Notes under the pieces: model-generated
What the model was told of the DNA's origin: nothing
The model's input: only the letters and a program-made list of their open reading frames with translations
Databases searched by the model: none
Source: an uncultured Pseudomonadota bacterium
Lineage (GTDB): Bacteria; Myxococcota_A; UBA796; SXON01
DNA: 64,000 nt
Assembly: GCA_903900265.1 (NCBI GenBank)
Contig: CAIUMM010000226.1
Span: 6,893-70,892 of the forward strand
Reading direction: 5' to 3'
Program-made: the position numbers and the translations under genes
Shown here: in pieces, positions 4,060 through 51,977 of the stretch
Layout of the letters: the number at the start of each line of letters is the position of its first letter
How positions within the stretch are numbered: the stretch's first letter is position 1

Positions 4060-4182
4060 CGGGTGCTCGTGCGGGTCGGGCGGATAACGCGCGGTGGGCA
4101 AAGGCGCCCCCTGAACCTCCATCCGGTTAGGCAACGACGCCAAAACGTCGCAACGCTACGCTCCCGATCCCAAGGTCCTCCC

Positions 4183-6327
4183 ATGCCCAACCACCCGCAC
4201 CGCGACGCCATCCTCGCGGCCATCCTGCAGGCGATGCGCGCGCGCGTCGGAGAGTCCGAGAGCGCCGAGGCCACGACCGCGTTCGCGACCGCAGCGCTCG
4301 CCCAGACGCGCACCTCTAGCGTAGAGAACGTGCCGCCTTCCGCAGCGGCCGCAGGGTTGAGTGAGCTCTGGGACTTCGTGCGCGACGCCCAGCCGGTCGG
4401 GCCGAACGTGAAGGTGCGCGCCGAGGGGAGCGGCGCGGTGCTGCTGTCGTCGATGGCCGACCAGCCGTTCATCGTCGACACGATTCGCAAGGCGCTGCGC
4501 GCCCGAGGCGCTATAGACGTAGCCGGTGTGCACGTGATCCTCCGTGTCGCCCGCAGCGCAGGCCCAGTCCGCCTCGGTGCAGACGGGGAGGGTCGGGCTG
4601 AGTCGGCGCTGCGCTTCCGCTTTGACGGCGTACCGAGCAGCGAACTACCCGCGATGGAGGACGACCTTCGGGATCGGTTGCGCCTCGCGTGCAGCGTGGT
4701 CGGTGATTTTGAGAGCATGACCGCGGCCATCGAAGCGACGGCCGACTCCGCACTTCAGGCGTCGGGAGAGGATGCCATTGAAGCGGCCGAGTTTCTGCGC
4801 TGGATGCTCGCAGAGAACTTTGTCATCCTCGGCGTCACGCGCACCGCGGTAAACGCGCCGGATCTGAGGCTGGGCGCCGATCGCATCGTCAGCCCGCTCT
4901 GGCCCGCGGCCGGGACCGGCAGCTTTGCCGGCATCGTGCAAGTCCGCAAAGGCAACGTCGAAGCTCCGGTACACCGCAACGGTCGCGTCGACGTCATCCG
5001 CATCGCCCTCCCCGGCAGCCAGACCGTGGTGCGCGGCCTGTTCACGCACCGCGCGCTGACCCAACCGTGCAGGCACCTGCCGATCTTGCGCCGCGCCCTC
5101 GCCGGGGTGCTCGCCGACACCCGCCAGCGCCCGAACAGCTACCGGTACCGCGGTCTGGCAAACATCTTCGACTCCCTGCCTACCGAATGGCTTTTTTCGG
5201 CAACCGCCGATCAGATCCGGTCGGTGATCGAGCTGGTTTTTGACGCCGAGCAAGACCAGCAGGTGCGCGTGCACGTGGCCCAACAGGACGAAGGGAGCAC
5301 GACGTTCACGCTCATCTCCATCCCCGAGCGCCGCTACTCCGAGGAGCTGCGCGATCGCGTACAGCAGCAGCTCGCTTCGGTGACCGGCGCGAACTACACC
5401 GACTCGGGCTTGTTCGCCGGCCGCTACGACTCAGTGCTGTTGCAGGTCTATCAGACCGGTACCCGAGCGTTGACCGCCGAGGACTGCGCTGCGCTGCAGC
5501 AGCAGATCACCGCGCTGACCACGCCGCGGGGGGACCGCGCAGGGGCGACCCCGGGCGCCTTCCGGGACAGCGCCGGCGATTGGACCGCGACGACCGAGCC
5601 CGCCGCCCGCTCGGTGACCGTGCTCATGGATCTGACCGGCGCGAGCGCAGCGCAGGTGGCCGACGCGTGGCGAGCAGCGATCGCCCGCACGCAAGGCTCG
5701 CAGATCCTCACCGATCTGCGCGACGCCAGCGCAGAACCCGCGGGCAAAGCCTTCGCGTGGACGCTGTACACCGACGGCATCGAAGCCCTCGTCGCGAGCT
5801 GGCTCAGCGCAGCGCGTGACAGCGCTGCCGACGCACACGCAGCAGACTTCAACACCGCGCTGAGCGCGCTCGCCCTCCATGCCGGCGAGGCCCCTGCCCG
5901 CCCGGGAAACGCCACCATCGCGCAGCACGTCGCCAATGGCATCCCCGAAGCCCTCGCTATGCGCATCGTCGACGCCTCGAACGCCCTCTACGCCGACGAG
6001 ATCTGCGTCATCGCGCAGGCCAACAACGCGTCCATCGCGGACGCAGCCCAGCGCTACGCGGCGGTCGGTCAGACCACCGGGCTGATCGCGGTGATCGGCG
6101 CCGCCCCGCCCGGCGAATCGCGCTGGGCCCCCCTCGCCCGGCACATCCTACGGCTACGCTACACCGCCCTCCTGAGGGTGCTGGTGCTCGGGGTGAGCGG
6201 CCGCGGGGGAGCAGCCACCCCGGAGACGCTGACGCGCATCGCAACCATCCTGCAGCGCGTCGTCGGCGCGAACCCCGACGTCGCTGCGCTGGTCGCCGCG
6301 GAGCATCAGATCCGCGCGGTGCGGTAG
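4183..6327 (+). CDS. NAD-specific glutamate dehydrogenase (large bacterial GDH)-like protein with regulatory regions only; catalytic core apparently absent
   Basis: Track ORF 4063..6327; ATG 4183. The N-terminal part resembles the ACT-like region of ~1600-aa NAD-GDH (AEFLRWMLAENFVILGV, FTLISIPERRYSEELRDRVQQQL). The C-terminal ~150 aa resembles its C-terminal helical region (GIPEALAMRIVDASNALYADEICVIAQ...ESRWAPLARHIL). I found no dehydrogenase or Rossmann segment in between. Confidence 0.6.
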   Translation: MPNHPHRDAILAAILQAMRARVGESESAEATTAFATAALAQTRTSSVENVPPSAAAAGLSELWDFVRDAQPVGPNVKVRAEGSGAVLLSSMADQPFIVDTIRKALRARGAIDVAGVHVILRVARSAGPVRLGADGEGRAESALRFRFDGVPSSELPAMEDDLRDRLRLACSVVGDFESMTAAIEATADSALQASGEDAIEAAEFLRWMLAENFVILGVTRTAVNAPDLRLGADRIVSPLWPAAGTGSFAGIVQVRKGNVEAPVHRNGRVDVIRIALPGSQTVVRGLFTHRALTQPCRHLPILRRALAGVLADTRQRPNSYRYRGLANIFDSLPTEWLFSATADQIRSVIELVFDAEQDQQVRVHVAQQDEGSTTFTLISIPERRYSEELRDRVQQQLASVTGANYTDSGLFAGRYDSVLLQVYQTGTRALTAEDCAALQQQITALTTPRGDRAGATPGAFRDSAGDWTATTEPAARSVTVLMDLTGASAAQVADAWRAAIARTQGSQILTDLRDASAEPAGKAFAWTLYTDGIEALVASWLSAARDSAADAHAADFNTALSALALHAGEAPARPGNATIAQHVANGIPEALAMRIVDASNALYADEICVIAQANNASIADAAQRYAAVGQTTGLIAVIGAAPPGESRWAPLARHILRLRYTALLRVLVLGVSGRGGAATPETLTRIATILQRVVGANPDVAALVAAEHQIRAVR

Positions 6328-6354: not shown

Positions 6355-8010
6355 TTAAGGGCTGACCGGGAGCGCCAGCGGCTGCTCGTCCGAGGACGAA
6401 GGCTGCGCCGGTGCATCATCCCAACCGTCTTCGAGTCCGGGAGCGGGCGCCCAAGTGTCCGGGTTGGCGGAACGGTACTCGACGTCGCTCACCCAGTAGC
6501 CATCCACCCACTCGTTGCCGTCGAACCACCCAGGGATCCACGTGCTTCCAGGACGATCCTCCATCGGCTCCCAGTACCCACCCTCGTAGATGCCGTCTTC
6601 GTCGTACGCCGCGCTGACCCAACGGTAGCCCTTGCGCATCGCCGGACGCCAGAACCCTTCGATCCAGTCGGCGCCGTCCCAGTAGCCGGCCTCCCAGACG
6701 TAGCCGGCGGGCGCCTGCGCGTTCGGTTCCCAGTGGCCCCAAACGTAGGTTCCGTCTGCCGTCCAGCGACCGTCCCTCCACGCCCACGAGGAGCCGCGGC
6801 TGGGGATGCGCCAGTAGCCTTCGATGTAGGTGTCACCCACCCACCAGCCGGGCACGTACACCCAATGGCTCCCCCAAGAAGCAGGCGCCGGACCCGCCGG
6901 GGTCCAGTGACCAGGGACCCACCAGCCGTCATAATGACCGGGCACCCACACCCAACCCGCACGCGCAGGCGGCGACCAATCGTAAAGCCAAGCGTGAACC
7001 GCGTAGTTGAAGGTCACCACCGCGACGGTCGCGTGCACCCACCGGTAGTACGGATGCACCCACCAGTGCGTGTACCGCGCGCTGTAGTAGCGGGCGGGCG
7101 GCGGCGCGTGCCGCGCGTCCGGGTACGCGCGCACATGATGCGGGGCCGGCCGGGCGTAGCGATGATCGCGACTGTGGTAGGGCGAAGGCGGACGAGGATC
7201 CCGCGCCCGCTCTACCGCAGTGCGCTCCGCAGCGGGACGGGCCGTGTGTGCGGCGTCAGCGCGGGCAGGGACCGGCGTAGAACGACCATCCGGTGCGGGT
7301 CGGGAGACCGTCTGCCGCTCCACACCGCTGCCGGGAGCGCGATCGGGGGAGCGTTCCGCGCTGGCTGCGGACGGGTTGCGCTGTGCATCCCCCTCAGAGG
7401 TCGGCGTCGGGCGCATCGGCTGGGTCGTAGTCGTCGGCGTGCGCGTGTCGGATTCGGTCGAGCGCGCAGGGTCCGAAGTCCGCGTAGGTTCGGGAGCGCG
7501 CGTCGCGGGGTCCGAAGTCCGCGTAGGGTCCGAAGTCCGCGCAGGGTCCGAAGTCCGCGTAGGTTCGGGAGCGCGCGTCGCAGGCTCAGAAGTCCGCGTA
7601 GGTTCGGGAGCGCGCGTCGCAGGGTCCGAAGTCCGCGCAGGGTCCGAAGTCCGCGAAGGGTCCGAAGTCCGCGAGGGGTCCGAAGTCCGCGTAGGTTCGG
7701 GAGCGCGCGAAGGTTCCGAAGTCCGCGAAGGCTCCGGAGAGCGCGGGGGCGTAGAAGGCGTGCGCGCGGGCGCAGGGGGCGTGCGCGCGGGCGTTGCGGG
7801 CGTGCGCGTGGGCGTGGCGGGCGCAGGCTTGGAAGGCGTGGCCGGCTTCGCGGTCTCCTTTTTCGCGGGAGGCGCTTTCTTAGAGTCGTCCCGCTTTTTT
7901 CCGTCTTCTGCCGTGGGGGCACCGGCGTGCGCCGACGACACCGGGGCGCTCAACGTCGCACCAAGGAGGAGGAACGCCAACCAATGGGAGGAGCGAGGGA
8001 GCAACATCAT
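6355..8010 (-). CDS. secreted repeat protein: Pro/Thr/Ser/Arg-rich tandem repeats plus C-terminal Trp/Tyr/Gly-rich (WxxGxW-type) repeats
   Basis: Track ORF 6355..8112; ATG 8010 gives MMLLPRSSHWLAFLLLGATLSAPVSSAHA (signal peptide). The central part is hexapeptide repeats ([ST]RTSDP, ATRAPEPTRTS[DE]P). The C-terminus has repeated GYWxG/WVxGxW units (YVWGHWEP, GYWDGADWIEGFWRP, WVDGYWV). Confidence 0.75.
   Translation of the reverse strand: MMLLPRSSHWLAFLLLGATLSAPVSSAHAGAPTAEDGKKRDDSKKAPPAKKETAKPATPSKPAPATPTRTPATPARTPPAPARTPSTPPRSPEPSRTSEPSRAPEPTRTSDPSRTSDPSRTSDPARTSDPATRAPEPTRTSEPATRAPEPTRTSDPARTSDPTRTSDPATRAPEPTRTSDPARSTESDTRTPTTTTQPMRPTPTSEGDAQRNPSAASAERSPDRAPGSGVERQTVSRPAPDGRSTPVPARADAAHTARPAAERTAVERARDPRPPSPYHSRDHRYARPAPHHVRAYPDARHAPPPARYYSARYTHWWVHPYYRWVHATVAVVTFNYAVHAWLYDWSPPARAGWVWVPGHYDGWWVPGHWTPAGPAPASWGSHWVYVPGWWVGDTYIEGYWRIPSRGSSWAWRDGRWTADGTYVWGHWEPNAQAPAGYVWEAGYWDGADWIEGFWRPAMRKGYRWVSAAYDEDGIYEGGYWEPMEDRPGSTWIPGWFDGNEWVDGYWVSDVEYRSANPDTWAPAPGLEDGWDDAPAQPSSSDEQPLALPVSP
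7471..7745 (-). repeat. in-frame coding tandem repeat (18-bp unit GGGTCCGAAGTCCGCGNA interleaved with a ~39-42-bp composite unit)
   Basis: Direct reading of 7471-7745 shows more than 10 near-identical 18-bp units with no spacers. They encode the RTSDP/PEPTRTS peptide repeats of the 6355..8010 CDS. Confidence 0.85.
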
Positions 8011-8102
8011 GCCATCCAGGGACAAAGGGATTCTAAACACGGCCGCGCGGTTGATGCACACCCGTGCCAAGCTAACGCCCCAAACTCGCCGGTTATTCAC
8101 GT

Positions 8103-8141
8103 CCAAAAGCAAACCCCTCCCCGGCGTGTGCCGGAGAGGGG
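8103..8141 (-). terminator. rho-independent terminator candidate downstream of the cyclophilin gene
   Basis: On the minus strand: CCCCTCTCCGG-CACACG-CCGGGGAGGGG hairpin (8141-8114), followed by TTTGCTTTTGG (8113-8103), about 35 nt after the stop at 8177. Confidence 0.6.
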
Positions 8142-8176: not shown

Positions 8177-8767
8177 CTACGCGGGGCGATCGCCGCGGTA
8201 GACGAGCACCTGGATCAACTTGACCGGGGTGAGCGGCTTGTTGTTCTGGTTCTGCGGGACGCGGGTGATCTGGGGCACGAGCGCCATGCCGTCGATGACC
8301 TTGCCAAACACGGCGTGCTTGCCGTCGAGCCAGGGGGTCACGACCTCAGTGAGGAAGAACTGGCTGCCGTTGGTGTTCGGGCCCGCGTTCGCCATCGAGA
8401 GCAAGCCCGGACGGTCGTGGCGCAGCTTGAGCGCAGCGGCCTCGTCCTTCCACTTGTAGCCGGGGCCGCCGGTGCCTTCGCCCTTCGGGTCCCCGCCCTG
8501 GATCATGAAGTCCTTGATGACGCGGTGAAAGATCGTGCCGTCGTACATCGGGCGCTTGGACTTGACACCAGTAGGATCGGTCCACTCGACCGCGCCAGTC
8601 GCGAGGCCGACAAAGTTCGCGACGGTGCGCGGGGCTTCTTTCTCGTAGAACTCGACTTCGATGTCGCCCATGCTGGTCTTGAAGAGCGCGCGGAGCGGGC
8701 CTTCGCCGGGGACGGATTCGGAGGCGGGAGGAGCGGGGGAATCGGGAGCGTTGCCGAAGCTGAACAT
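8177..8767 (-). CDS. peptidyl-prolyl cis-trans isomerase, cyclophilin type
   Basis: Track ORF 8177..8779 (TTG); ATG 8767 has GGAG 6 nt upstream. Cyclophilin motifs: [41 protein letters not shown]. Confidence 0.9.
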
Positions 8768-8816
8768 GAAAAACTCCAAGGGCGGAGAGCCCGGAAGGGG
8801 TGACGAAATCCGAAGA

Positions 8817-17753: not shown

Positions 17754-18511
17754 TGTGGTGTGACACGCTGGAAAACGGACTGGCCAACGGGCAAGTTCAG
17801 GTCGGGCTCATAGACGGCGATCTCGGCGTCGCGCAAGCCCTATGCCCGCAAAACCGACTCGGACTCGCGGTAGGCGGCGGAGCGATCGTCGAGACCACGA
17901 ACTTCTACGGCCACATCGCGGGCAGCGGCACCCTGCGCGGTACGCTCGCGGTGTCCAAACGCACCGCGTTGTACGCCGCGATCGAGGGATTTCGCTACGA
18001 CGCGGTGCTCTCGCCGATCGCGTCCAGCGCGATGGGCCTCGGCTACACCGACATCGGCGCAAGCGGCCAGATCGTGCAGACCGACAACCTTGCGCTCGCG
18101 GTGCAAGGCAAGGTCGTGTTGCCGACAGCGTTCACGCTGAACCAGAACGGCTGGCCGCTCGCTGCGGATCTCGGGCTCGCGGCGGGCTGGAGCCCAGCGG
18201 ACAACGTCGTGGTGCACGGATCCGTGCTCGGCCTCGGGGGACTGGCGTTGGGCGGCGGGCCGCAATTCCCGCACGCCGGCGTGCACGTAGACGCAGGCTT
18301 GGAGTGGCGCGCGACCCCTGGTTTTGGCGTAGTCGTCGACGCGCTCGGAGGCTTTGGCTACACCGCGCCCGTCGATGTGTTCGCCGCCGGGGTCGGCTTC
18401 CGTGGCGCGGTCGGGGAGCACGCAGGTTTGGCTTTAGAAGCCACGGTACCCCTTGTCGGTCGGGAGCGCACGCTCGCCGCTTTGGACCTACGCTTCGACT
18501 GGAGGCTCTGA
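17750..18511 (+). CDS. beta-strand-rich hypothetical protein (outer-membrane-barrel-like pattern but no signal peptide)
   Basis: ATGA overlap with the upstream stop. Alternating Gly/aromatic strands; C-terminus ...LDLRFDWRL. N-terminus MMWCDTLENG lacks a signal peptide. Confidence 0.55.
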   Translation: MMWCDTLENGLANGQVQVGLIDGDLGVAQALCPQNRLGLAVGGGAIVETTNFYGHIAGSGTLRGTLAVSKRTALYAAIEGFRYDAVLSPIASSAMGLGYTDIGASGQIVQTDNLALAVQGKVVLPTAFTLNQNGWPLAADLGLAAGWSPADNVVVHGSVLGLGGLALGGGPQFPHAGVHVDAGLEWRATPGFGVVVDALGGFGYTAPVDVFAAGVGFRGAVGEHAGLALEATVPLVGRERTLAALDLRFDWRL

Positions 18512-21349
18512 GCGCAACACCTGCTCGGCGTCCGCGACGGCCCGCGCGCGCGCGCCCGGCAACCAGGTTGATGCGTCCGCGGTCCGGGCCAGCACCTGAC
18601 GCGCCGCCGTGATGCGCGTCGCCCGATTGGGATGGCCCAACGCGAGGAATACGCTCCGCAACGTGTCGGCTCCAATGCCCGGAGCCGGGAACCATTCCGG
18701 CGTGGCGAGCCGCTCCAGCAGCGCCGCCGGTAGCTCACCGGGGACCGCGCGCACAAAGGGAGCGAACGCAGTCAGATCCCGGCATTCGAGCACGATGAGT
18801 CCACGCAGCGCATCCCGCGCGATCCCCGAGACGTCCTGCTGCCGCAGCAGCCCGGCCTCGACGCGGAAGCCGACGGCGACTTCGCCCGCGAACGGCACGC
18901 CGGCGAGATCCCCGACGCTGTCAATCTCGTCGGCCAGCTGCAACGCGAGCGCCGCGTTCGACTCTTCAATCGCGAGCTCAGCGCGCTGGCAGAGCACCAG
19001 CAGACCGGGGCGCCGATCGCCCGAATCCTCCGACCGGGCCTGCGCCCGATCCAGCAGGTCGAGCGCGCGCACGGGCTTGCCGGCGATGCGCGCCAACCAC
19101 GCCAGACCACAGAGCGCCTCGACCTCGCCGCTGGCGTCCCGAGCCTCAACCGCGCGCTGGAGCAGCCGATCCGCGAGCGCCTGCGCGCGCGAGATCTCTC
19201 CCTCATCGAGGTGCAAGCGCAGCCGCGCCGTGACGACCTCCGGCCACACCGCCTCGCCCTCTGCGAGCCCGACCAGCCCTTCGGAAAGCAGGCGCGCAGC
19301 GTCCTCGCGGGCACCGAGCATCAAGCGTGCGAGCCCGCGACTCGCCAACGCGCGGGACGCCTCCGGCTGGTTTCCTTCGGCGCGAGCAGCGAGCAGCGCG
19401 CGAGCGTACGCGTCTTCGGCGCGGAGCGGCTGTCCAAGCGCGCGCAACGCATCCCCATGCACCAGATGCAGCGTACGACGCAGCCGAGCGGCTTCCTGCG
19501 GGCTCAATTGCGGCTCGGCGACCGGCGCCAGCGCCAACGCTCGCTCGCACAGGCCACGCGCCGTCATCTCGCCGCTGCGCGCACGCGCCCGGGCCGCGGC
19601 GCTGACCAAGAGCGGGTAGGCACCCACGGCATCTCCGGCTCGCAGCAGGTGACTCGCGACGCTCTCAGCCACGGTTCCAGGTCGGCGACGGTACCAGGCC
19701 TGCAGGGTCTCAGCGGCTCGGCGATGCAGCGCTACCCGCGCGGCCCCGTCGAGCGCCTCGTACACCGCCTGCTGGCGACGCGCCGGAGACAACGAGAGCG
19801 ACGTCACCGGCGGCGCGCCCTCGCTCGTGCGCGTCAACAGACCGGCGTCCGCGATGTGCGACGCCGCACCCTCCGCTGTGCCCTCGTCGCTGTCGATCAG
19901 CTGCGCGAGCAAGCCCACGGGAGCGGTCCCGAGCACCGCCATCGCCGCCGCCAGCTGCGCTGAGCGCGCCGGCAGGGCCGCGAGCCACGCGCGCGCCATC
20001 GCGACCTCGTCATCCGGGAGCGGAAGCGGGTCGCTCTGAAAGGTCTCGACCGACGCCACGGCGCGGAGCATCCCGTCCACACCGCGCTCCAGCCATCCCT
20101 GACGGACCATCGCCTGGAGCGTTCTCACCGCTGTCCCGGCTTGGCCGTCCAGCTCCCCGTGAAAGCGCCGGGCGAGATGCGCGGCTACGGCACCGTGAAT
20201 CCCGCGATCGCGCAGCAGCTCGCGCAGCTGCTCGCGGTCCAGCGCAAGCAGACTCAGCTCCGGCGCGTCCGATGCGGGCACCCCGAGGACGACGCGGACG
20301 GGCGCGTCCGCAGGTCCAAGCCCACCGCCCTCTACGTTGCCGTCGACGCGGATCGAAACCCCAAGCGCGGCCCCGAGCTCGAAGATCGCCGCGGCGGCGC
20401 GCCGGCGTCCGCTCCCCGGCGGCGCAGCGATGCGAATCGTACCGCCCTCCCCGGCGAGCGCTTGTATACGCGCGCGCACCGCTGTCAGCAGCGGCTCGCG
20501 CCCAACGAGCGCGGGGGGAGGCACGACGTCTAGCGCCGCGACCGCGTCCTCCGCCGACGCAAAACGCCGGGCCGGGTCCTTCTCAAGCAGGCGCATGCAC
20601 ACGCGCTCGACCGAGCGCGGGATGCGAGGGTCGAGGTCGGTCACCGGGCGCGGCATCTCGGTCAGGTGGCGGACCAAAAAACCCGCGATGGTGTCGGCGG
20701 CGATCGGCTTCCGTCCCGTCAGCATCAGGTAGAAGACCGCCCCGAGCCCGTAGAGATCGGTGCGCGCCGTGATCGCGTCCCCGCCGATCTGCTCGGGCGC
20801 CATGAACGCCACCGTGCCGACGAGGCGGCCGACCATGGTGAGATTGGAGCGAAAGCTGTCGTTGTCCTTCACGCCGCCGAAGTCCGCCATGTGCACATGA
20901 CCTTCCCGGTCGAGCAACACATTGGCGGGCTTGATGTCCCGGTGCACGATGCCGAGCGCGTGCATGGCCGTGAGCGCCTCGGCCATCTCCCGGAAGATCT
21001 GCACCGCACGGGCGATGCGATCGGGGGGAGGATGCGCCTCCCACGACTCAACGACCGCGGCGAGATCCGCGCCGTCCACCAGCTCCATCGCGAACCACGG
21101 CAAGCCTCCGCTGTGACCGGTGTCAAAGGCGCGCACTACGCGAGGGTGGTCCAAACGCGACAAGGTCAGGTACTCCCTCCGCATGCGCTCCTCCTCCTCT
21201 GGGGAGAGCTTCGCGGGCAGGAGCACCTTCAGCGCGGCGGGACGTCCAGAGTGCTGGTGCGTGCACCGATAGACCGCCGCCAAGCCGCCTTGTCCGATAA
21301 GCTCGTGGACGATCCAGTCGCCCACGCAAACGCCGACGTCTGGCAGCAC
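18488..21349 (-). CDS. Ser/Thr protein kinase fused to a degenerate NTPase-like region and TPR-like repeats
   Basis: Hanks kinase motifs GQGGLAAVY, ALKVL, HRDIKPANVLL, DFGG, MAPEQ. The downstream region has a P-loop-like APPGSGRRR (no Lys-Ser/Thr), then a long helical repeat region. Confidence 0.85.
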   Translation of the reverse strand: MLPDVGVCVGDWIVHELIGQGGLAAVYRCTHQHSGRPAALKVLLPAKLSPEEEERMRREYLTLSRLDHPRVVRAFDTGHSGGLPWFAMELVDGADLAAVVESWEAHPPPDRIARAVQIFREMAEALTAMHALGIVHRDIKPANVLLDREGHVHMADFGGVKDNDSFRSNLTMVGRLVGTVAFMAPEQIGGDAITARTDLYGLGAVFYLMLTGRKPIAADTIAGFLVRHLTEMPRPVTDLDPRIPRSVERVCMRLLEKDPARRFASAEDAVAALDVVPPPALVGREPLLTAVRARIQALAGEGGTIRIAAPPGSGRRRAAAAIFELGAALGVSIRVDGNVEGGGLGPADAPVRVVLGVPASDAPELSLLALDREQLRELLRDRGIHGAVAAHLARRFHGELDGQAGTAVRTLQAMVRQGWLERGVDGMLRAVASVETFQSDPLPLPDDEVAMARAWLAALPARSAQLAAAMAVLGTAPVGLLAQLIDSDEGTAEGAASHIADAGLLTRTSEGAPPVTSLSLSPARRQQAVYEALDGAARVALHRRAAETLQAWYRRRPGTVAESVASHLLRAGDAVGAYPLLVSAAARARARSGEMTARGLCERALALAPVAEPQLSPQEAARLRRTLHLVHGDALRALGQPLRAEDAYARALLAARAEGNQPEASRALASRGLARLMLGAREDAARLLSEGLVGLAEGEAVWPEVVTARLRLHLDEGEISRAQALADRLLQRAVEARDASGEVEALCGLAWLARIAGKPVRALDLLDRAQARSEDSGDRRPGLLVLCQRAELAIEESNAALALQLADEIDSVGDLAGVPFAGEVAVGFRVEAGLLRQQDVSGIARDALRGLIVLECRDLTAFAPFVRAVPGELPAALLERLATPEWFPAPGIGADTLRSVFLALGHPNRATRITAARQVLARTADASTWLPGARARAVADAEQVLRSEPPVEA

Positions 21350-21389
21350 AGCACTCAGAATGAACCTCCGTCCTCGGAAGGTAACGGGC

Positions 21390-24300
21390 TCAGCCGTGTA
21401 TGGGTTGCAACCAATCCACGTCGAGGAACCGTTCGCCGTCTTCCCGACCGAGATTGGCCGCGAGCGAGCGCGCGAGCGCGTCGGCCACGCGACGATGCCG
21501 CGCCACGGCAGCTTCGTCGGTCGCGTGCTGAGCGGCCAGACAATGCCCCTTCAAACTATAGTATCGAAACCCAGCCGCGTCCGCGCGACGGATCGCGCTC
21601 TCGCCACGCCGCGTCGCCTCCCCGTGATCCCCGAGCTCCGCGTAGACCCGCGCGAGCGAGAGATCCAGACGGCATTCCTGATAGGGCCAGCGGGTGCCCG
21701 GATGGTCGAGCGCCTCCTGAAGCAGCAGATGCGCCAAGGTCCGGTCCTTGTCATGGGCCGCGAGACGGGCGCGCCAAGCGAGCAACAACGGCGAAAACCC
21801 CTCCGTGTCGTGCCGCGCCATCAGCGGCTCCAGCTGCGCGATCGACTTCCGCACCAGCTCGTAATCGGCGAGCGCCCACCCCGCGCGGATCACCGATACG
21901 TGAACCACGACCTCTTCGTCCCGGTCGTCGAGCGACCGAGCGATCTCCATCGCCGCGTTCGCCTCGGCCAGTGCTTCGGTGTAACGCCCAAGATCGACGA
22001 GCAGCAGGGACTTATGGTGACGCCCACGCGCCATTCCCAGCGGGTGGTGGGTCTCTCGCGCGAGCTGGCAGGTCTTCTCCGCGAGCTCGAGCCCGCGGCG
22101 GAGGTTGCCGGTGAAGTGGTGGATCTCCACGAGGTTGACGCGGGCCATGGACAGCGGCCCCAACATACCGACGCGCTCAAAAACCTCGGCAGACTGTTCA
22201 AAATAGCGGCGCGCCTCGCCCGCTTGTCCCCGACACAGCGCGACCAGACCGAGGCCGTTGTAGCCCCATCCGAGGCTACGATCGTCGCGCACGCTCTCCC
22301 CGACCGCGAGCGCTTCTACCCAGTACCGACGGGCTCCTTCGAGGTCTCCCCGCGCCCAATGCACGCCGCCCAGACCATGCAGCGGCATCACGCGCAGCGT
22401 AGGGTCGCTCACGCGCTCCGCGAGGCGCAGCGCCTCGCGATGGTCCGTCTCGGCAGCGGCGATGTCCCCGTCATGGCGCCAACGCTTTCCGCGCGCGGTG
22501 TACACGCGGGCCAGCAAGCGCTCGTCGGAGATCTCCTTCCCCAGCTCGACGGCCTGCTCCAGCGCCTGCCCGACCTCGGCCCAGCGCCCCAGATGTTCGA
22601 GCGCTTCGGCGCGCTGCAGCAGCGTCTCGGCGAGCAGACGATCCGCGTCGTCCAACGTGATGTACTCGCGGGCATCGGGCTCGATGTTCAACGCGCGGTC
22701 CAGATAGCCGAGCGCCTCGGCCACGAAGGACCGCCCCAGCAGACGCTGACCGGCGCGGAGCAAGTAACTGTACGCTTTACCCGGGACTTCTCCCTGCTCA
22801 AAGTGCCACGCGAGCGCCTCGACCACGAGGTTCGCGCGACGCCGGAAGGTGCGCTCCAGCGCCTCGCCGATGCGCCGATGGTACTGAACCCGGGCGATCG
22901 GGGGCACCTCGGCCTGCAGCAGATCCCGCACACGCGCCTGGGAGAGATCGATGTGCTCTTCGCCCTCCACACGGCGCTCCCGCACCAAGCCCGCGTCGAT
23001 GAGCTCGTCCACCGCCGTCAAGATCGCGTGCTCATCCAGCAACGACGCCGCGGACAGCAGCGCTAAGGTCATCTCTTGGTTTCCTACCGCGAGGACATGG
23101 GCGATCTCCCGGGCATTGACGGTCAGCGCGTCGATGCGGGTGACGAGGCCCGCTCGGACCGAGCGCGGGATGGGCAGCGCGATGCGCTGCACCGTGGCTT
23201 CATCAATCGCGAGTCGGGCGCGGCCCTCGATCGGCCGGATCGTGCCTTGCTCGACGAGCCCCCGGATCATCTCGTTGATGAACGCAGGATTTCCCTCACC
23301 TTCTTTATGAAGCCGCCGCGCCAGCACACGCGCCGGACCATCATCTGGCAGCAGCGCCAGCACCAATTCCTCGACCGCCGCCGGGCTCAATGGCCGCAAC
23401 GGAAGAAGGACCGGCGTGACACCGGTGTTCGCCCCGCTGCGCAGGCCCTCGAAGCGCTCATCGGACGCGCCTGGAGCGCGGGTGAGCAACCAGACGAGCG
23501 GCTCCGACGCGAGGCTGAGCGTGTTGCGCACCAGATATTCGATGAGCTCCACGCCGACGTCGTCCGCCTCATGGGCGTCTTCGATGACGATCAGTCGCGG
23601 AGGCGAGTTGCTCAACATCTCGCGGAACGCCGCGTAGACCCCGTAGCGCTCGATCTTGTCCTCGGCCTCGAGGCCGTAGAGCTGCTGCAAGGTGCGCGGC
23701 ACCTGCACCGTCTCGCGGCGCAAGGTCTCCACCAGGCTTGCAAATGAGGCCAGCGGGCCACCGGCGCCGCTCGCGCGGATCTTCAGCGTAGCGACGCCGC
23801 TGCTCCGCGCCAGATCACGCGCGAGGCGCGCCATGCGGGACTTGCCCAGCCCCGGAGCGCCCTCAACCAGCACGATCGACCCTTTGCCCTCGCGCGCCGC
23901 GGCGACGAGTTGGCCCAAAACCGCGGACTCCTCCGCCCGCGCGACCAGCACCGGAGGCCAGGAGCCGTCATCAAACTGCAGCGCGCCGGCATCCGCCCCC
24001 TCAAGCACATGCAGCAGGTGCGTAGCGCTGGCGAACCGATCACCCGGCTCTTTTTGAAGCAGACGCAAGCAAATGTCCTCCAGCTCCGGCGGCACGGAGG
24101 GCGCCAGCTCCCGCGGCGGTCGCGGCGGGCGATGCAGATGCTTGTCCAGATACCCAGCCAGCGTGCGCGCGTTGAACGGCCGCCGTCCCGTTAGCATCAA
24201 GTAGAGCACGGCCCCTAAGGAGTACAGATCGGTGCGCGCGTCGATGCGCTCGCCGTTGATCTGCTCGGGCGCGATGTAAGCAACCGTCCCTAAGACCTCC

Positions 24301-24884
24301 CCGTGGGCGGTGAACTCGGTGACGCCCGACTCTTTCACCACGCCGAAGTCCATCAACTTTACCGTTCCATCCGGCAACAGCATGATGTTGGCGGGCGTGA
24401 CATCCCGGTGCACCAAGCCCCGCAGGTGCACGTACTCCAAGGCGCGCGCCACTTGAATCAGCACCTGCCGCACGCGCTCAAAACGCTCCGCCGCAGGCAG
24501 CTCCTGCCACTGCTCTACGGCGACGCGGAGATCCTGCCCGTCGACGATCTCCATGACAAAGTAGGGTCTGCCCTCGCTCTTGTCGTGGTCACCGGGCGCC
24601 TCGGTTTGGGCGCCCCCGGGACGTTCTCCTGCGTCTACGCCCGTCCACCATCCCCAGTCGTAAACCATGGTGATGTTCGGGTGATGCAGCTTCGATAGCG
24701 CGCGGAACTCGCGACGAAACCGACGTTCAACCTCTTCGGCGCTCCCGGTGGGATTCATCAACTTGATCGCCCGCCGCTCGCCGGTCTCGGGCCATCGCGC
24801 CTCGTAGACCGAAGCCATCCCGCCGCGCCCAAGCAGGCGCACCACATCCCAGCCGCCAACCCGACTCCCGGGAGCCGGATCCAT
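21390..24884 (-). CDS. Ser/Thr protein kinase fused to AAA/STAND-type NTPase and TPR repeats
   Basis: Track ORF 21390..25202; start at ATG 24884 (MDPAPGSRVGGWDVVRLLGRGGMASVYEA). HRDVTPANIML, DFGVVKE, YIAPEQ. Intact Walker A GAPGLGKS and Walker B-like LIVIEDAHEAD. C-terminal TPR-like repeats. Confidence 0.85.
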   Translation of the reverse strand: MDPAPGSRVGGWDVVRLLGRGGMASVYEARWPETGERRAIKLMNPTGSAEEVERRFRREFRALSKLHHPNITMVYDWGWWTGVDAGERPGGAQTEAPGDHDKSEGRPYFVMEIVDGQDLRVAVEQWQELPAAERFERVRQVLIQVARALEYVHLRGLVHRDVTPANIMLLPDGTVKLMDFGVVKESGVTEFTAHGEVLGTVAYIAPEQINGERIDARTDLYSLGAVLYLMLTGRRPFNARTLAGYLDKHLHRPPRPPRELAPSVPPELEDICLRLLQKEPGDRFASATHLLHVLEGADAGALQFDDGSWPPVLVARAEESAVLGQLVAAAREGKGSIVLVEGAPGLGKSRMARLARDLARSSGVATLKIRASGAGGPLASFASLVETLRRETVQVPRTLQQLYGLEAEDKIERYGVYAAFREMLSNSPPRLIVIEDAHEADDVGVELIEYLVRNTLSLASEPLVWLLTRAPGASDERFEGLRSGANTGVTPVLLPLRPLSPAAVEELVLALLPDDGPARVLARRLHKEGEGNPAFINEMIRGLVEQGTIRPIEGRARLAIDEATVQRIALPIPRSVRAGLVTRIDALTVNAREIAHVLAVGNQEMTLALLSAASLLDEHAILTAVDELIDAGLVRERRVEGEEHIDLSQARVRDLLQAEVPPIARVQYHRRIGEALERTFRRRANLVVEALAWHFEQGEVPGKAYSYLLRAGQRLLGRSFVAEALGYLDRALNIEPDAREYITLDDADRLLAETLLQRAEALEHLGRWAEVGQALEQAVELGKEISDERLLARVYTARGKRWRHDGDIAAAETDHREALRLAERVSDPTLRVMPLHGLGGVHWARGDLEGARRYWVEALAVGESVRDDRSLGWGYNGLGLVALCRGQAGEARRYFEQSAEVFERVGMLGPLSMARVNLVEIHHFTGNLRRGLELAEKTCQLARETHHPLGMARGRHHKSLLLVDLGRYTEALAEANAAMEIARSLDDRDEEVVVHVSVIRAGWALADYELVRKSIAQLEPLMARHDTEGFSPLLLAWRARLAAHDKDRTLAHLLLQEALDHPGTRWPYQECRLDLSLARVYAELGDHGEATRRGESAIRRADAAGFRYYSLKGHCLAAQHATDEAAVARHRRVADALARSLAANLGREDGERFLDVDWLQPIHG

Positions 24885-25038
24885 CAACGTGGCGGACTTG
24901 GCAGCGACCTCGATCACCCGTTCATCTCCCTTTCCCTCCCATTCTATACTCCCGACGACGAGTCTGCTGCTCGGGTTCTCCACCGGCTGAACACCCAGCC
25001 GGCTGGAGGCGCGATATGCTGAGCCAAAGGAGTTGTTG

Positions 25039-25800
25039 ATGAAGCTCGAGGCATTTGCATGGACCGACCCGGGGCCGGTGCGCGAGAACAACGAAGACAG
25101 CTTCTTTGTAGAAGAAGACGGCGGGCTGTTCGTCGTCGCCGACGGCATGGGTGGCCACGCCGCGGGTGAAGTTGCGTCTCGAATCGCCGTCGAAACCCTC
25201 AAAGAGCTGCTTCAAGGCTCATTGGACCCGGAGGAGACCCGCCTCGAGCGCGACGTGCAGGACCCCGCGGATGTGTTGCGCGAGCGGCTGCGCTACGCGA
25301 TGAATCAGGCCAGCGCCAAGATTCGGCGGGAAGCCCAGATGAACCCTGCGTATTCAGGAATGGGGACAACGCTCTGCGTGCTGATGATCGAAGGGGACGC
25401 CGCCCACATCGCCCACGTGGGCGATTCGCGCATCTACCTCGTTCGCGAGGGTGAGATCCATCGCCTGACCCGCGATCACACCGTTGTTCAGCAGGAGATC
25501 GACGCCGGACGGCTCACGCCCGAGATGGCGCGCCAGGTTCCCCACCGCAACTACCTGACCCAATCGGTCGGGTACCATGGCCCCGTGGAGCCCGACACCG
25601 CCACCCGCCCCATTCAAGCAGGGGACCTCTTCGTGCTCTGCAGCGATGGTCTGACCGATCCGCTCGATGACCCGCAGATCGCCGAGATCTGCGCGCAGGC
25701 GCACCCGAACGACCTCGCGGAGACGCTCGTGCGCGCGGCGCTCGACGGCGGCGGCGAAGACAACATCACCGTCATCACGGTGCGCGTCGTCGAGGACTGA
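25039..25800 (+). CDS. PP2C-family Ser/Thr protein phosphatase
   Basis: AGGAG 6 nt upstream of ATG 25039. Motifs RENNEDSF, VADGMGGHAAGEVAS, LCSDGL, GGEDNITV. Confidence 0.92.
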   Translation: MKLEAFAWTDPGPVRENNEDSFFVEEDGGLFVVADGMGGHAAGEVASRIAVETLKELLQGSLDPEETRLERDVQDPADVLRERLRYAMNQASAKIRREAQMNPAYSGMGTTLCVLMIEGDAAHIAHVGDSRIYLVREGEIHRLTRDHTVVQQEIDAGRLTPEMARQVPHRNYLTQSVGYHGPVEPDTATRPIQAGDLFVLCSDGLTDPLDDPQIAEICAQAHPNDLAETLVRAALDGGGEDNITVITVRVVED

Positions 25801-42559: not shown

Positions 42560-42684
42560 GAGGGCTCCTCTCCAGACGGACTGGGGTGCAGGGAACGGAC
42601 GACCTATTCAATATAGTCCCTTGTCGTCCTCCGCCGGCGCCGTGCCCGTGCATGTTGACCGCAATTTCGGATAGCCGTGCCCAC

Positions 42685-43632
42685 ATGATCGTCGGAATTC
42701 CCAAAGAGACCCTCCCTGGAGAGGGCCGCGTCGCGTGCGTCCCCTCCGGTGTGCGTACGCTGCGCGCCGCCGGACACGCTGTCCTCATCGAACAAGACGC
42801 CGGGCTGCGCAGCGGGTTCGGCGACGACGAGTACATTCGAGCCGGCGCTGAGGTCGTCGGAACCGCCGAAGATTTGTACGAACGCGCGGCGTTGATTTGG
42901 AAGGTTTTAGCGCCGTCCACCTACGAGAGCAGCTTGTTTCGGAGCGGTCAACGCCTGTTGGCGTTGCTGCCGAGGGGAGCCGCGCTGCCGAAGGACGCGC
43001 GCGCCGTGGACGGGCTGCTCTGGCCCGGGCCCGCCGGCGACTTTCCCGCGCGCGTCGCGATGAGCGAGATCGCCGGGCGACTCGCCGTGGAGGCCGCGAG
43101 TCACGTACTTCAGCAGCCAAACGGCGGCCGGGGGCTGCTCTTGGGTGGCGTCGCCGGTGTGCCCCCCGCGGAGGTGGTCATCCTCGGCGCCGGTGTGGCA
43201 GGGCGGGGAGCCGCCGATCTCGCCCTCGGAATGGGCGCGCGCGTCACCGTCCTCGACACGTCCCTGCCCGCCCTCCGTGCGCTGCGAACCACCACCCTCG
43301 TTGCGACCCCGGCGGCGATTGAGCGGGCGCTCGCGCAGGCGGACGTCGTCATCGCAGCCGTGCGCGTACCGGGAGAGCCCGCCCCGCGCCTGTGCCGCGC
43401 CGCACACTTGACGCTGATGCAACCTGGCGCCGTCGTCGTGGATCTGTCGATCGCCGAGGGCGGCGCGTTCGAGACCACGCCACACACCTCGTTGCACGAG
43501 CCCAGCGTCATCGTCAACGGAATTGTGCATATCGGAGTGCCCAACTTCGCTGGGGCTGTACCGCGCACCGCCTCCGTTGCGTTGTCGCACGCGTGGATAG
43601 GCTGCGCGATGCAGCTCGTCGCAACCCAGTAG
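42685..43632 (+). CDS. alanine dehydrogenase / PNT-family NAD-binding protein (short form)
   Basis: Track ORF 42586..43632; ATG 42685 (MIVGIPKETLPGEGRVACVPSGV...). Rossmann motif VVILGAGVAGRGAA. About 315 aa, shorter than canonical Ald. Confidence 0.75.
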   Translation: MIVGIPKETLPGEGRVACVPSGVRTLRAAGHAVLIEQDAGLRSGFGDDEYIRAGAEVVGTAEDLYERAALIWKVLAPSTYESSLFRSGQRLLALLPRGAALPKDARAVDGLLWPGPAGDFPARVAMSEIAGRLAVEAASHVLQQPNGGRGLLLGGVAGVPPAEVVILGAGVAGRGAADLALGMGARVTVLDTSLPALRALRTTTLVATPAAIERALAQADVVIAAVRVPGEPAPRLCRAAHLTLMQPGAVVVDLSIAEGGAFETTPHTSLHEPSVIVNGIVHIGVPNFAGAVPRTASVALSHAWIGCAMQLVATQ

Positions 43633-50852: not shown

Positions 50853-51977
50853 ATGGCCAGCACGACCCGCGTTCAGTACGATCTCGCCCGAATCCAGACC
50901 TTCTTCCCCGCGCTCGCAGCGCTTGGAAACCGCTTCGCTGCGGAGCGTCCTTGGGAGGGCCTGACCATTGGGCTGAACATGCACCTGACCACGCTGACCG
51001 CCACGCTGGTGCGCGAGCTGATGCTGGGAGGCGGTCGCTTTGTGCTCGCGGCGGCCAACCCTGCGACCACCGACGGTGCTGTGGTCGAGTACCTCCGTGA
51101 GCTCGGCGTCGAGGTGCACACCGGAGCAGGTCGCTCCGACGCACAAACCGCTGTCGTCGCCGCAAAGCCCGATCTCGTCGGCGACGTAGGCTTCGCGCTC
51201 GGCGAGGAGCTGCTTCGCGCGTCCTTCTCGCCGCCGCTCGGGCTCGTGGAGATCACCGGCACCGGCATCGATCGCCTCCGGAAACGGGCCGCGATTCCGT
51301 TCCCCGTGCTCAACATCAACGATGGAAAGCTGAAGACCGCGATCGAAAACCGTCACGGCGTCGGCGAAGGCCTGTGGCAAGCGTACACCGCGCTCACCGG
51401 ACAGCACCTCGCGGGCCGGCGCGTACGTGTGATCGGCTACGGGCGCGTGGGGGCAGGCGTAGCCGCGTACGCCAAAGCCGGCGGCGCGGTCGTCGAGGTC
51501 GTAGACACCGATCCGGTACGCCAGCTCATCGCGCGGTTTGACGGCCATGTACCTGTAGAACCCGACGCGGTGACCCGGCCGCACGTCGTGGTGACGGCCA
51601 GTGGGACGGCAGGCGCGCTCTCCCTCGCTCACATGGCGAAGCTCCCCGAAGACGCCGTCGTCATCAACGCTGGGCATGGTCCCGAGGAGATCGACGTCGC
51701 GGCCCTCGCCGACGAAGCGACGGAGGTGGACCACATCGGTCCTCGGGTCGTGCGATACCGCCACCCCGCCGGCGGCCACATCGTGGTGCTCGGCCACGGA
51801 AGCCCGCTGAACATCGTCATGAACGCTGGCTCCAACGAGCCCGTCCTCCTGCACTTTACGCTGCTCGCGCTGGGACTTCGTTGGCTGCGGGAAGCGCCGC
51901 GGCCCGCTGGGGAGAACAAGCTTCCCCACCATCTGGAAGCCGAGGTTGCCCGTCTCTGGTTGCCGGGAGTGCGGTAG
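50853..51977 (+). CDS. adenosylhomocysteinase-family protein, short divergent paralog
   Basis: 374 aa. Collinear with the AHCY fold (NMHLTTLTATL, NPATTDG, TGTGIDRL, LNINDGKLKTAIENRHG, IGYGRVGAG, NAGHGPEEID), but many canonical residues are substituted and it is shorter than typical AHCY. Confidence 0.7.
   Translation: MASTTRVQYDLARIQTFFPALAALGNRFAAERPWEGLTIGLNMHLTTLTATLVRELMLGGGRFVLAAANPATTDGAVVEYLRELGVEVHTGAGRSDAQTAVVAAKPDLVGDVGFALGEELLRASFSPPLGLVEITGTGIDRLRKRAAIPFPVLNINDGKLKTAIENRHGVGEGLWQAYTALTGQHLAGRRVRVIGYGRVGAGVAAYAKAGGAVVEVVDTDPVRQLIARFDGHVPVEPDAVTRPHVVVTASGTAGALSLAHMAKLPEDAVVINAGHGPEEIDVAALADEATEVDHIGPRVVRYRHPAGGHIVVLGHGSPLNIVMNAGSNEPVLLHFTLLALGLRWLREAPRPAGENKLPHHLEAEVARLWLPGVR

Follow-up and report, generated by a model that had tools for sequence, protein, structure and literature searches.

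What remains of a large glutamate dehydrogenase (GDH) once its catalytic domain has gone, and why would such a remainder be kept? This question is raised by a gene on the plus strand, at positions 4183-6327 of a 64,000-nt stretch of contig CAIUMM010000226.1 (assembly GCA_903900265.1) from an uncultured bacterium of the lineage Myxococcota_A; the whole stretch is called the window here. Its 714-amino-acid (aa) product turned out to carry the N-terminal region and a part of the C-terminal domain of the large, 180 kDa-type NAD-dependent GDHs (L-GDHs), joined by a short linker. It is very probably a retained, non-enzymatic L-GDH derivative, as indicated by a large in-frame deletion at the orthologous locus, by the conservation of the short form in related genomes and by purifying selection on the part that is left.

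4183..6327, plus strand: coding sequence of the catalytic-domain-less L-GDH derivative (intact reading frame and translation, Pfam, GC content at third codon positions, six conserved short-form homologs)

The open reading frame (ORF) runs without interruption from an ATG at position 4183 to a stop codon at 6325-6327. A longer version could start from a GTG at 4063 but is less favoured, because all homologs begin at the position of ATG 4183, where an MPNHP or MPTHP start is aligned in every one of them, the full-length enzymes included. The coding signature of a 67% GC genome is visible in this frame, with a GC content at third codon positions (GC3) of 0.84 in the N-terminal and 0.87 in the C-terminal part and of 0.51-0.56 at second positions, and the high GC3 is specific to the 714-aa frame.

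When compared with the curated Pfam thresholds, the product matched GDH_ACT1 (PF21075) at residues 34-154 (26.1 bits, cutoff 23.7), GDH_HM1 (PF21073; HM, helical motif) at residues 300-354 (28.7 bits, cutoff 21.2) and GDH_C (PF21074) at residues 478-671 (36.3 bits, cutoff 26), the latter only over positions 82-284 of the 339-position profile. The catalytic domain Bac_GDH_CD (PF05088) was not matched in the 714-aa protein even at E≤1, and the families PF21079, PF21077 and PF21078, which make up the HM2-ACT*3-HM3 segment and are found in P0006-P0008 and other relatives, were not matched in it either. There was also no direct match to PF21076 (ACT2); the corresponding unit aligns with a sub-threshold GDH_ACT2 stretch of the relative P0007 (19.6 bits, cutoff 22.8). 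An NCBIfam search of the protein gave no meaningful match. Together with a multiple alignment and a structural model, these matches divide the gene as follows.

4282..4644, plus strand: ACT*1-like domain, residues 34-154, with the family-invariant DQPFIVDT loop/helix at residues 93-100 (PF21075, model)
4768..5061, plus strand: PAS-like beta-sheet domain, residues ~196-293 (AlphaFold: helix 196-209, five strands 213-287)
5080..5244, plus strand: helical motif 1, residues 300-354, the most conserved segment (PF21073; rate 0.66 times that of the sister enzymes)
5266..5520, plus strand: ACT*2-aligned unit (model: strands 362-368 and 373-381, helix 387-401, strands 405-412 and 417-425, helix 432-446)
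5539..5604, plus strand: deletion junction and disordered linker, residues ~453-474 (blastp and alignment with the L001-L003 proteins; predicted local distance difference test, pLDDT, below 50 at residues 455-465)
5605..6324, plus strand: helical remnant of the C-terminal domain, residues 475-714, running to the native C-terminus (PF21074, alignment, all-helical model)
5803..5838, plus strand: loop, residues ~541-552, with a variable in-frame 5-aa repeat (R/G)DSAG (alignment; pLDDT dips to 70)

The first-pass annotation of this DNA, made from the letters alone, had recognized an L-GDH relative with N- and C-terminal non-catalytic regions and a missing dehydrogenase core. Pfam, blastp and the alignment agree with both statements, and the four peptide motifs quoted there all occur in the translation. 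Its view of the middle of the protein needs revision. The Ala-rich segment of ~200 aa that it took for a low-complexity spacer is C-terminal domain, as the GDH_C match demonstrates, and the actual junction is formed by a disordered linker that is about 11-20 residues long. Likewise, the core is indeed lost, but it is not the only part missing, as the comparison with full-length enzymes reveals.

A scan of GTDB species genomes returned five loci that match only residues 1 to ~460 of the query, with 66-69% identity, and all of them belong to full-length relatives. In L001, L002 and L003, from metagenome-assembled genomes (MAGs) of uncultured freshwater Myxococcales or a 'proteobacterium', the ORF runs on to 1541-1551 aa, and the ORF of L005 likewise extends far past the matched part. 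In blastp comparisons with the L001-L003 proteins, residues 1-463 of the short protein correspond to residues 1-459 of the full-length enzymes (69% identity) and residues 471-713 to residues 1289-1541 (48-49% identity), so that the C-terminal domain is covered only from about full-length residue 1289 to the native end. Full-length relatives have the Pfam domain order ACT1-HM1-ACT2-HM2-ACT3-HM3-catalytic domain, followed by the C-terminal domain. This order agrees with the structure of the Mycobacterium smegmatis enzyme (mL-GDH180), which comprises ACT*1-3, a PAS domain, HM1-3, the catalytic domain and the C-terminal domain (PMC8175468). In a multiple alignment, the short forms share one large in-frame gap with identical boundaries. 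The ~830 residues missing extend from HM2 through ACT*3, HM3 and the complete catalytic domain into the C-terminal domain, of which the first ~80 residues are gone. In an alignment of 76 sequences, including 70 full-length enzymes, this block contains 222 columns with ≥90% conservation among the enzymes. Because the whole catalytic domain is deleted, glutamate dehydrogenase function is impossible, and as far as the sequence can tell catalysis has been lost altogether. The linker residues GDWTATTE align with GDG..TATTA just before the ACT*3 region of the enzymes, which tentatively hints at two adjacent deletions instead of one. P0005, which is a further 15 residues shorter at the junction, does not have this linker piece.

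Is the short gene an additional copy, or is it what became of the enzyme gene itself? Upstream of it lie, in this order, an unannotated 222-aa ORF, a gene for an HTTM-like protein, a small ORF and a divergently transcribed gene for an ABC-F ATPase. In the stretches compared, this block is collinear with L003, L004 and L001, with 68-91% protein identity, and a full-length GDH gene occupies the same place after it; the divergent arrangement of ABC-F and GDH genes is common to the short-form contigs and the full-length loci. In a neighbour-joining (NJ) tree of the N-terminal region, moreover, the short forms constitute one clade, whose sister group consists of full-length enzymes and which lies among other Myxococcota-type L-GDHs, so that tree and synteny both support common descent with the L-GDH genes. 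Upstream synteny and the nested position of the short clade together identify the gene as a positional ortholog and not, as first proposed, a paralog: it is the deleted ortholog, which takes the place of the enzyme at the ancestral locus. No second piece of GDH was found in the 64-kb window by tblastn with full-length enzymes, nor was a GDH domain found when 26 further ORFs of the window were scanned with Pfam.

The short form is not confined to the window. We found five further clusters (at 90% identity) of short proteins of 704-752 aa, with 97, 93, 84, 71 and 61% identity to the window protein and 17 member sequences in total, on contigs from several independently assembled metagenome samples. 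All five have the same junction and, where the contig is long enough, the same ABC-F neighbour. Since the short clade is monophyletic and shares its junction, a single ancestral deletion followed by divergence is the likely course of events. The (R/G)DSAG repeat varies in number, with about one copy in the window, two in P0001, three in P0002 and about nine in P0003, and is absent as a tandem repeat from full-length enzymes. The short form is rare: among 1.84 billion representatives at 50% identity, a single cluster (P0004) covers both halves in one stretch, and two scans of the Joint Genome Institute (JGI) metagenome contig collection did not find further short forms. One locus from these scans, L009, matches only the N-terminal 456 residues, with 54% identity. 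Nine other proteins of ~620-750 aa were considered as independent short forms and rejected as N-terminal fragments caused by contig ends or frameshifts; eight of them still have ACT3 and usually also HM2 and HM3, and the ninth, P0137, has a frameshift-like Arg-rich tail. The first-pass annotation had held the short form to be uncharacterised, in line with our literature search on truncated or catalytic-domain-less NAD-GDHs, which yielded only generic papers on pseudoenzymes.

We then asked whether the remaining parts are under selection and calculated dN/dS, the ratio of nonsynonymous to synonymous substitution rates, with the Nei-Gojobori method (NG86) on a codon alignment, using 1000 codon bootstraps. 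The short-form set consisted of the window gene, L008, L007 and L006. Over the N-terminal ~460 codons, the short forms gave values of 0.139, 0.158, 0.207 and 0.200 (95% confidence intervals, CIs, within 0.08-0.27), which is indistinguishable from the 0.141, 0.199 and 0.204 obtained for full-length enzymes, at dS of up to ~1; not one bootstrap replicate reached a dN/dS of 1. The N-terminal module is thus under undiminished purifying selection. Over the C-terminal ~230 codons, in contrast, values of 0.39-0.60 were obtained for the short forms against 0.16-0.17 (CIs 0.11-0.24) for the enzymes. In the three deeper short-form pairs the upper CI bounds were 0.55-0.81 and ≤0.1% of the replicates reached 1, whereas the closest pair is too similar in this part for a dN/dS of 1 to be excluded.

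Relative rates tell the same story. In a three-point calculation against an outgroup clade, the ratio of the branch length of the short clade to that of its sister enzymes was 1.5 for the whole N-terminal module, 0.66 for HM1, 2.3 for ACT*2, 4.9 for the C-terminal remnant and 34 for the last 73 residues. Residues with ≥80% conservation among the 70 full-length L-GDHs are kept by the short forms in 348 of 354 alignment cells (98%) in the N-terminal and in 92 of 102 (90%) in the C-terminal part. The C-terminal remnant is therefore relaxed roughly three- to five-fold, yet it is not neutral, and the initial description of the protein as keeping the C-terminal region, although correct in that a remnant is present, overstated the case for a part that evolves about five times faster than in the enzymes. 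The frame is intact to the native C-terminus in all six short forms, and all indels are in frame. Because selection on the N-terminal module equals that of active enzymes, we regard the protein as functional and not as a decaying relic.

Which fold is being preserved? An AlphaFold2 model built on the 76-sequence alignment reached a mean pLDDT of 90.7 and a predicted template modelling (pTM) score of 0.68. It consists of N-terminal helices (residues 7-68), an ACT-like unit (strands 75-92, helix 97-107, strands 111-148), further helices (152-209), a five-strand PAS-like sheet (213-287), the HM1 helices (302-358), a disordered stretch at residues 455-465 that lies exactly at the junction, and a high-confidence, all-helical domain (475-713). 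In a Foldseek search against the PDB, the only significant matches were to M. smegmatis L-GDH180, with 7jsr at the top (E=1.2e-18, probability 1.0) and cryo-EM entries of the same enzyme at 1e-4; the next matches, to PAS/GAF sensors and ACT-like domains, had E>5e-3. The search of PDB sequences with phmmer returned nothing for the short protein at E≤1, and its link to the PDB was reached by fold search or through a full-length relative, L003, which matches 7a1d/7jsr by sequence with E=3e-221. The top Foldseek match adds to the two above-cutoff Pfam matches for the presence of the ACT*1-PAS-HM1-ACT*2 region. In the alignment, the PAS-like domain coincides with the PAS domain of mL-GDH180 (PMC8175468). 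Across the 76 sequences, D93, F96 and D99 are invariant in the ACT*1-like domain, and W207, G231, H264, R265 and G285 in the PAS-like domain.

These observations can be combined into a scenario for what the protein may do. In the ancestor of a small uncultured clade, about 830 codons were lost in frame from a Myxococcota L-GDH gene, leaving the ACT*1-PAS-HM1-ACT*2 module, which in the mycobacterial enzyme makes up the distal, flexible 'sensor' end, connected through a short disordered linker to ~240 residues of the helical C-terminal domain. The ACT/PAS module would still bind a metabolite of small size, with an amino acid or a related nitrogen or carbon signal as the likeliest candidate, in line with what has been suggested for the allostery of L-GDHs, and the signal would be passed on by protein-protein contacts and not by catalysis. 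ACT*2 and the C-terminal remnant are possible surfaces for self-association or partner binding, and the faster-evolving remnant probably serves mainly as a structural or oligomerisation tail. Published work on the full-length enzymes is compatible with such a division of labour. The subunits of mL-GDH180 contact each other through ACT*2, ACT*3 and the C-terminal domain and not through the catalytic domains, and its N-terminal ACT-like and PAS domains were proposed to be metabolic sensors acting via changes in quaternary structure (PMC8175468). Cryo-EM maps do not show residues 1-499 of an L-GDH, which behave as a flexible distal unit (bioRxiv 10.1101/2024.12.26.630402); it is this unit that the short protein preserves. 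Furthermore, at least one L-GDH, GdhZ of Caulobacter, conveys the nutrient status to the cell-division apparatus, and in Brucella loss of the L-GDH leads to division defects (PMC4802739).

Taken as a whole, a non-catalytic sensor or scaffold mechanism is the explanation that we favour, with somewhat better than even confidence, and with much less for any specific ligand or partner. The first-pass annotation had suggested an amino-acid sensor or a decoy subunit, and both ideas are plausible. The conserved ACT*1 loop DQPFIVDT, the conserved pair H264/R265 and the predicted fold support a putative ligand sensor. More tentatively, the ACT*1-PAS-HM1-ACT*2 region of large GDHs may be an autonomous signalling module that works independently of catalysis, for instance by metabolite-dependent binding of some other target in the cell (compare GdhZ and cell division), and this moonlighting function may be all that was left in the Myxococcota clade once the enzyme had been deleted; we consider this possible but would not bet on it. 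Several points weigh against the proposed role. A sensor or scaffold function is something that we only infer, and the literature searched did not yield a ligand bound by the N-terminal module of any L-GDH. Of the ancestral oligomer interfaces only a part remains, since the start of the C-terminal domain has been lost together with ACT*3, which forms an ACT-ACT sheet across subunits in mL-GDH180. The clade is tiny, with its five clusters and 17 member sequences, and the genomic neighbourhood (ABC-F, cyclophilin, SDR, cupin and alanyl-tRNA synthetase genes) gives no functional clue. Finally, NG86 is approximate under the strong codon bias of an 85% GC3 genome, although the comparison of short with full-length forms stands because the bias affects both classes alike.

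Could the protein instead act on an intact enzyme? Acting as a decoy or regulatory subunit, it would co-assemble through ACT*2 and C-terminal contacts with an active full-length L-GDH encoded elsewhere in the genome and, as part of the tetramer, modulate or poison it. In mL-GDH180, ACT*2 and the C-terminal domain are two of three contact elements (PMC8175468), and both are at least partly retained in the short protein; we regard this explanation as unlikely but worth keeping in mind. As the short gene sits at the ancestral L-GDH locus, a second copy would require an extra duplication or acquisition, and none was seen by tblastn within the 64-kb window. The 4.9-fold acceleration of the C-terminal remnant would be unexpected for a conserved partner interface, and the third contact element, ACT*3, is absent along with the first ~80 residues of the C-terminal domain.

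A non-functional relic, whose ORF persists only since GC-rich genomes keep long frames open, is improbable. The clade is small, constraint on the C-terminal part is weakened and the function as an enzyme has certainly gone, as one would expect of a gene in decay. However, the N-terminal dN/dS of 0.14-0.21 at dS of up to ~1 is that of active enzymes, 98% of the family-conserved N-terminal residues have been retained, six out of six short forms remain in frame to the native C-terminus with only in-frame indels, the C-terminal dN/dS is significantly below 1 in the three deeper comparisons, and a GC3 of 0.84-0.87 that is specific to the 714-aa frame points to genuine coding. These results largely refute the relic.

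Slightly less probable still, and with nothing directly in its favour, is a split enzyme, in which the HM2-ACT*3-HM3-catalytic segment would be encoded separately and reassemble with the short protein into an active GDH. The missing segment could be traced neither in the window nor beside the gene in the other short-form contigs, the cut lies inside the C-terminal domain and not at a domain boundary, and the relaxed C-terminal remnant argues against service to a catalytic partner. Although all sequences come from metagenome assemblies, an assembly or gene-calling artefact (a chimeric contig or a collapsed full-length gene) is refuted, for practical purposes, by the recurrence of the junction in five other clusters at 61-97% identity from independent samples, in sequences that have diverged on both sides of it and form a coherent clade.

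The surroundings of the gene deserve a brief description. Upstream, a short spacer separates it from the ABC-F gene.

4063..4182, no strand: intergenic stretch of 120 nt, presumed promoter region, from which the ABC-F gene (minus strand, Met at ~4062) and the GDH-like gene diverge

A scan of this spacer for the sigma-70 consensus gave no match, and scans for promoter and terminator consensus sequences were uninformative. Downstream, a 585-aa ORF (6355-8112, minus strand) is convergent with the GDH-like gene, from which it is separated by 27 nt. A stretch inside it resembles a signal peptide, long tandem repeats are rich in Pro, Thr and Ser (…PEPTRTSDP…), and the repeated C-terminal region is rich in Trp, Tyr and Gly; the ORF has no Pfam match and a codon-position GC phase that shifts along its length, and gene calls at its position vary in related contigs (168, 259 and 353 aa). 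In the window (8177-8779, minus strand) as well as in the short-form contigs, a cyclophilin gene is found downstream of the GDH-like gene, and in full-length loci (L003, 1447-2052; L004, 146-736) it is found upstream of the syntenic block. As its position differs, a local rearrangement accompanies the short-form lineage.

Elsewhere in the window, the genes that come closest to a GDH encode an AlaDh/PNT-family dehydrogenase (42586-43632, plus strand) and an AdoHcyase-like NAD-binding protein (50853-51977, plus strand). They are the only other amino-acid-dehydrogenase-like genes found in it, and no small or large GDH was found. The region 18488-25800 encodes two large Ser/Thr protein kinases, one of which (1270 aa) is fused to AAA_16 and TPR regions, with an adjoining PP2C phosphatase; signalling genes of this kind are typical of Myxococcota. 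Near these kinases, an FHA/GarA-like gene was not noticed. Across positions 1-64000, no tRNA genes and no Rfam families at the gathering threshold were detected. Among the contigs used for comparison, L004 and L005 (CALQBK020000217.1 and CALQBK020000160.1) come from a MAG labelled 'Bifidobacterium breve' (HRS-HS13-bin-116). Both are syntenic with the Myxococcota-like window and carry the two halves of one L-GDH gene at their contig ends, so that this bin looks mislabelled or contaminated.

The short form matters for two reasons. The JGI records P0001-P0005 bear the product name 'NAD-specific glutamate dehydrogenase' despite the lack of a catalytic domain. This is a propagating misannotation that would falsely credit genomes with glutamate catabolism in metabolic reconstructions, and the short protein should not be annotated as a glutamate dehydrogenase. 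Moreover, the roles of the ~500 N-terminal and ~300 C-terminal residues of large GDHs are largely conjectural, the published proposals being allosteric sensing and oligomerisation (PMC8175468). A lineage in which the enzyme has been deleted and the N-terminal module is still selected provides evolutionary evidence that this module is of use without catalysis. It would also serve specialists on large GDHs as a useful natural experiment on the part played by the extension. If the module is indeed autonomous, the short protein would offer a minimal and tractable handle on what the N-terminal extension of ~500 residues does. With its 714 aa, the protein is also a natural minimal construct with which to screen ligands, determine structures and study interactions.

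How does it relate to known systems? Its direct evolutionary parent is L-GDH180, represented by M. smegmatis MSMEG_4699 (PDB 7jsr/7a1d), Pseudomonas aeruginosa GdhB and Caulobacter GdhZ. It shares the genomic position of the Myxococcota enzymes and is 69% identical to them over the first ~460 and 49% over the last ~240 residues. Unlike them, it has 714 instead of about 1540-1650 aa, lacks the family-defining catalytic domain PF05088 and is therefore predicted neither to bind glutamate and NAD+ in an active site nor to catalyse their conversion. Like the pseudoenzymes (PMC10211241), it is a catalysis-free descendant of an enzyme that is under purifying selection, presumably for binding or regulation. 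Classical pseudoenzymes, however, keep the catalytic fold and have mutated active-site residues, whereas here the catalytic domain has been deleted outright and the accessory domains remain. Small molecules typically bind to ACT and PAS folds at interfaces between domains, which leads to changes in conformation or quaternary structure (PMC8175468). In L-GDHs, the ACT* topology is a permuted version of canonical ACT (PMC8175468). With two ACT-like domains and a PAS-like domain, the retained module resembles stand-alone ACT/PAS sensors, from which the protein differs in having no output domain except the helical C-terminal remnant. Another natural variant of the family, L-GDH115, has kept the catalytic and C-terminal domains, and most of its N-terminal sensor region is absent. 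Like this 115 kDa enzyme, found for example in Nocardia farcinica (PMC8175468), the short form is a length variant that arose by loss of a domain block, and it is its mirror image: the sensor region has been kept and the catalytic domain lost, the reverse of the case of L-GDH115.

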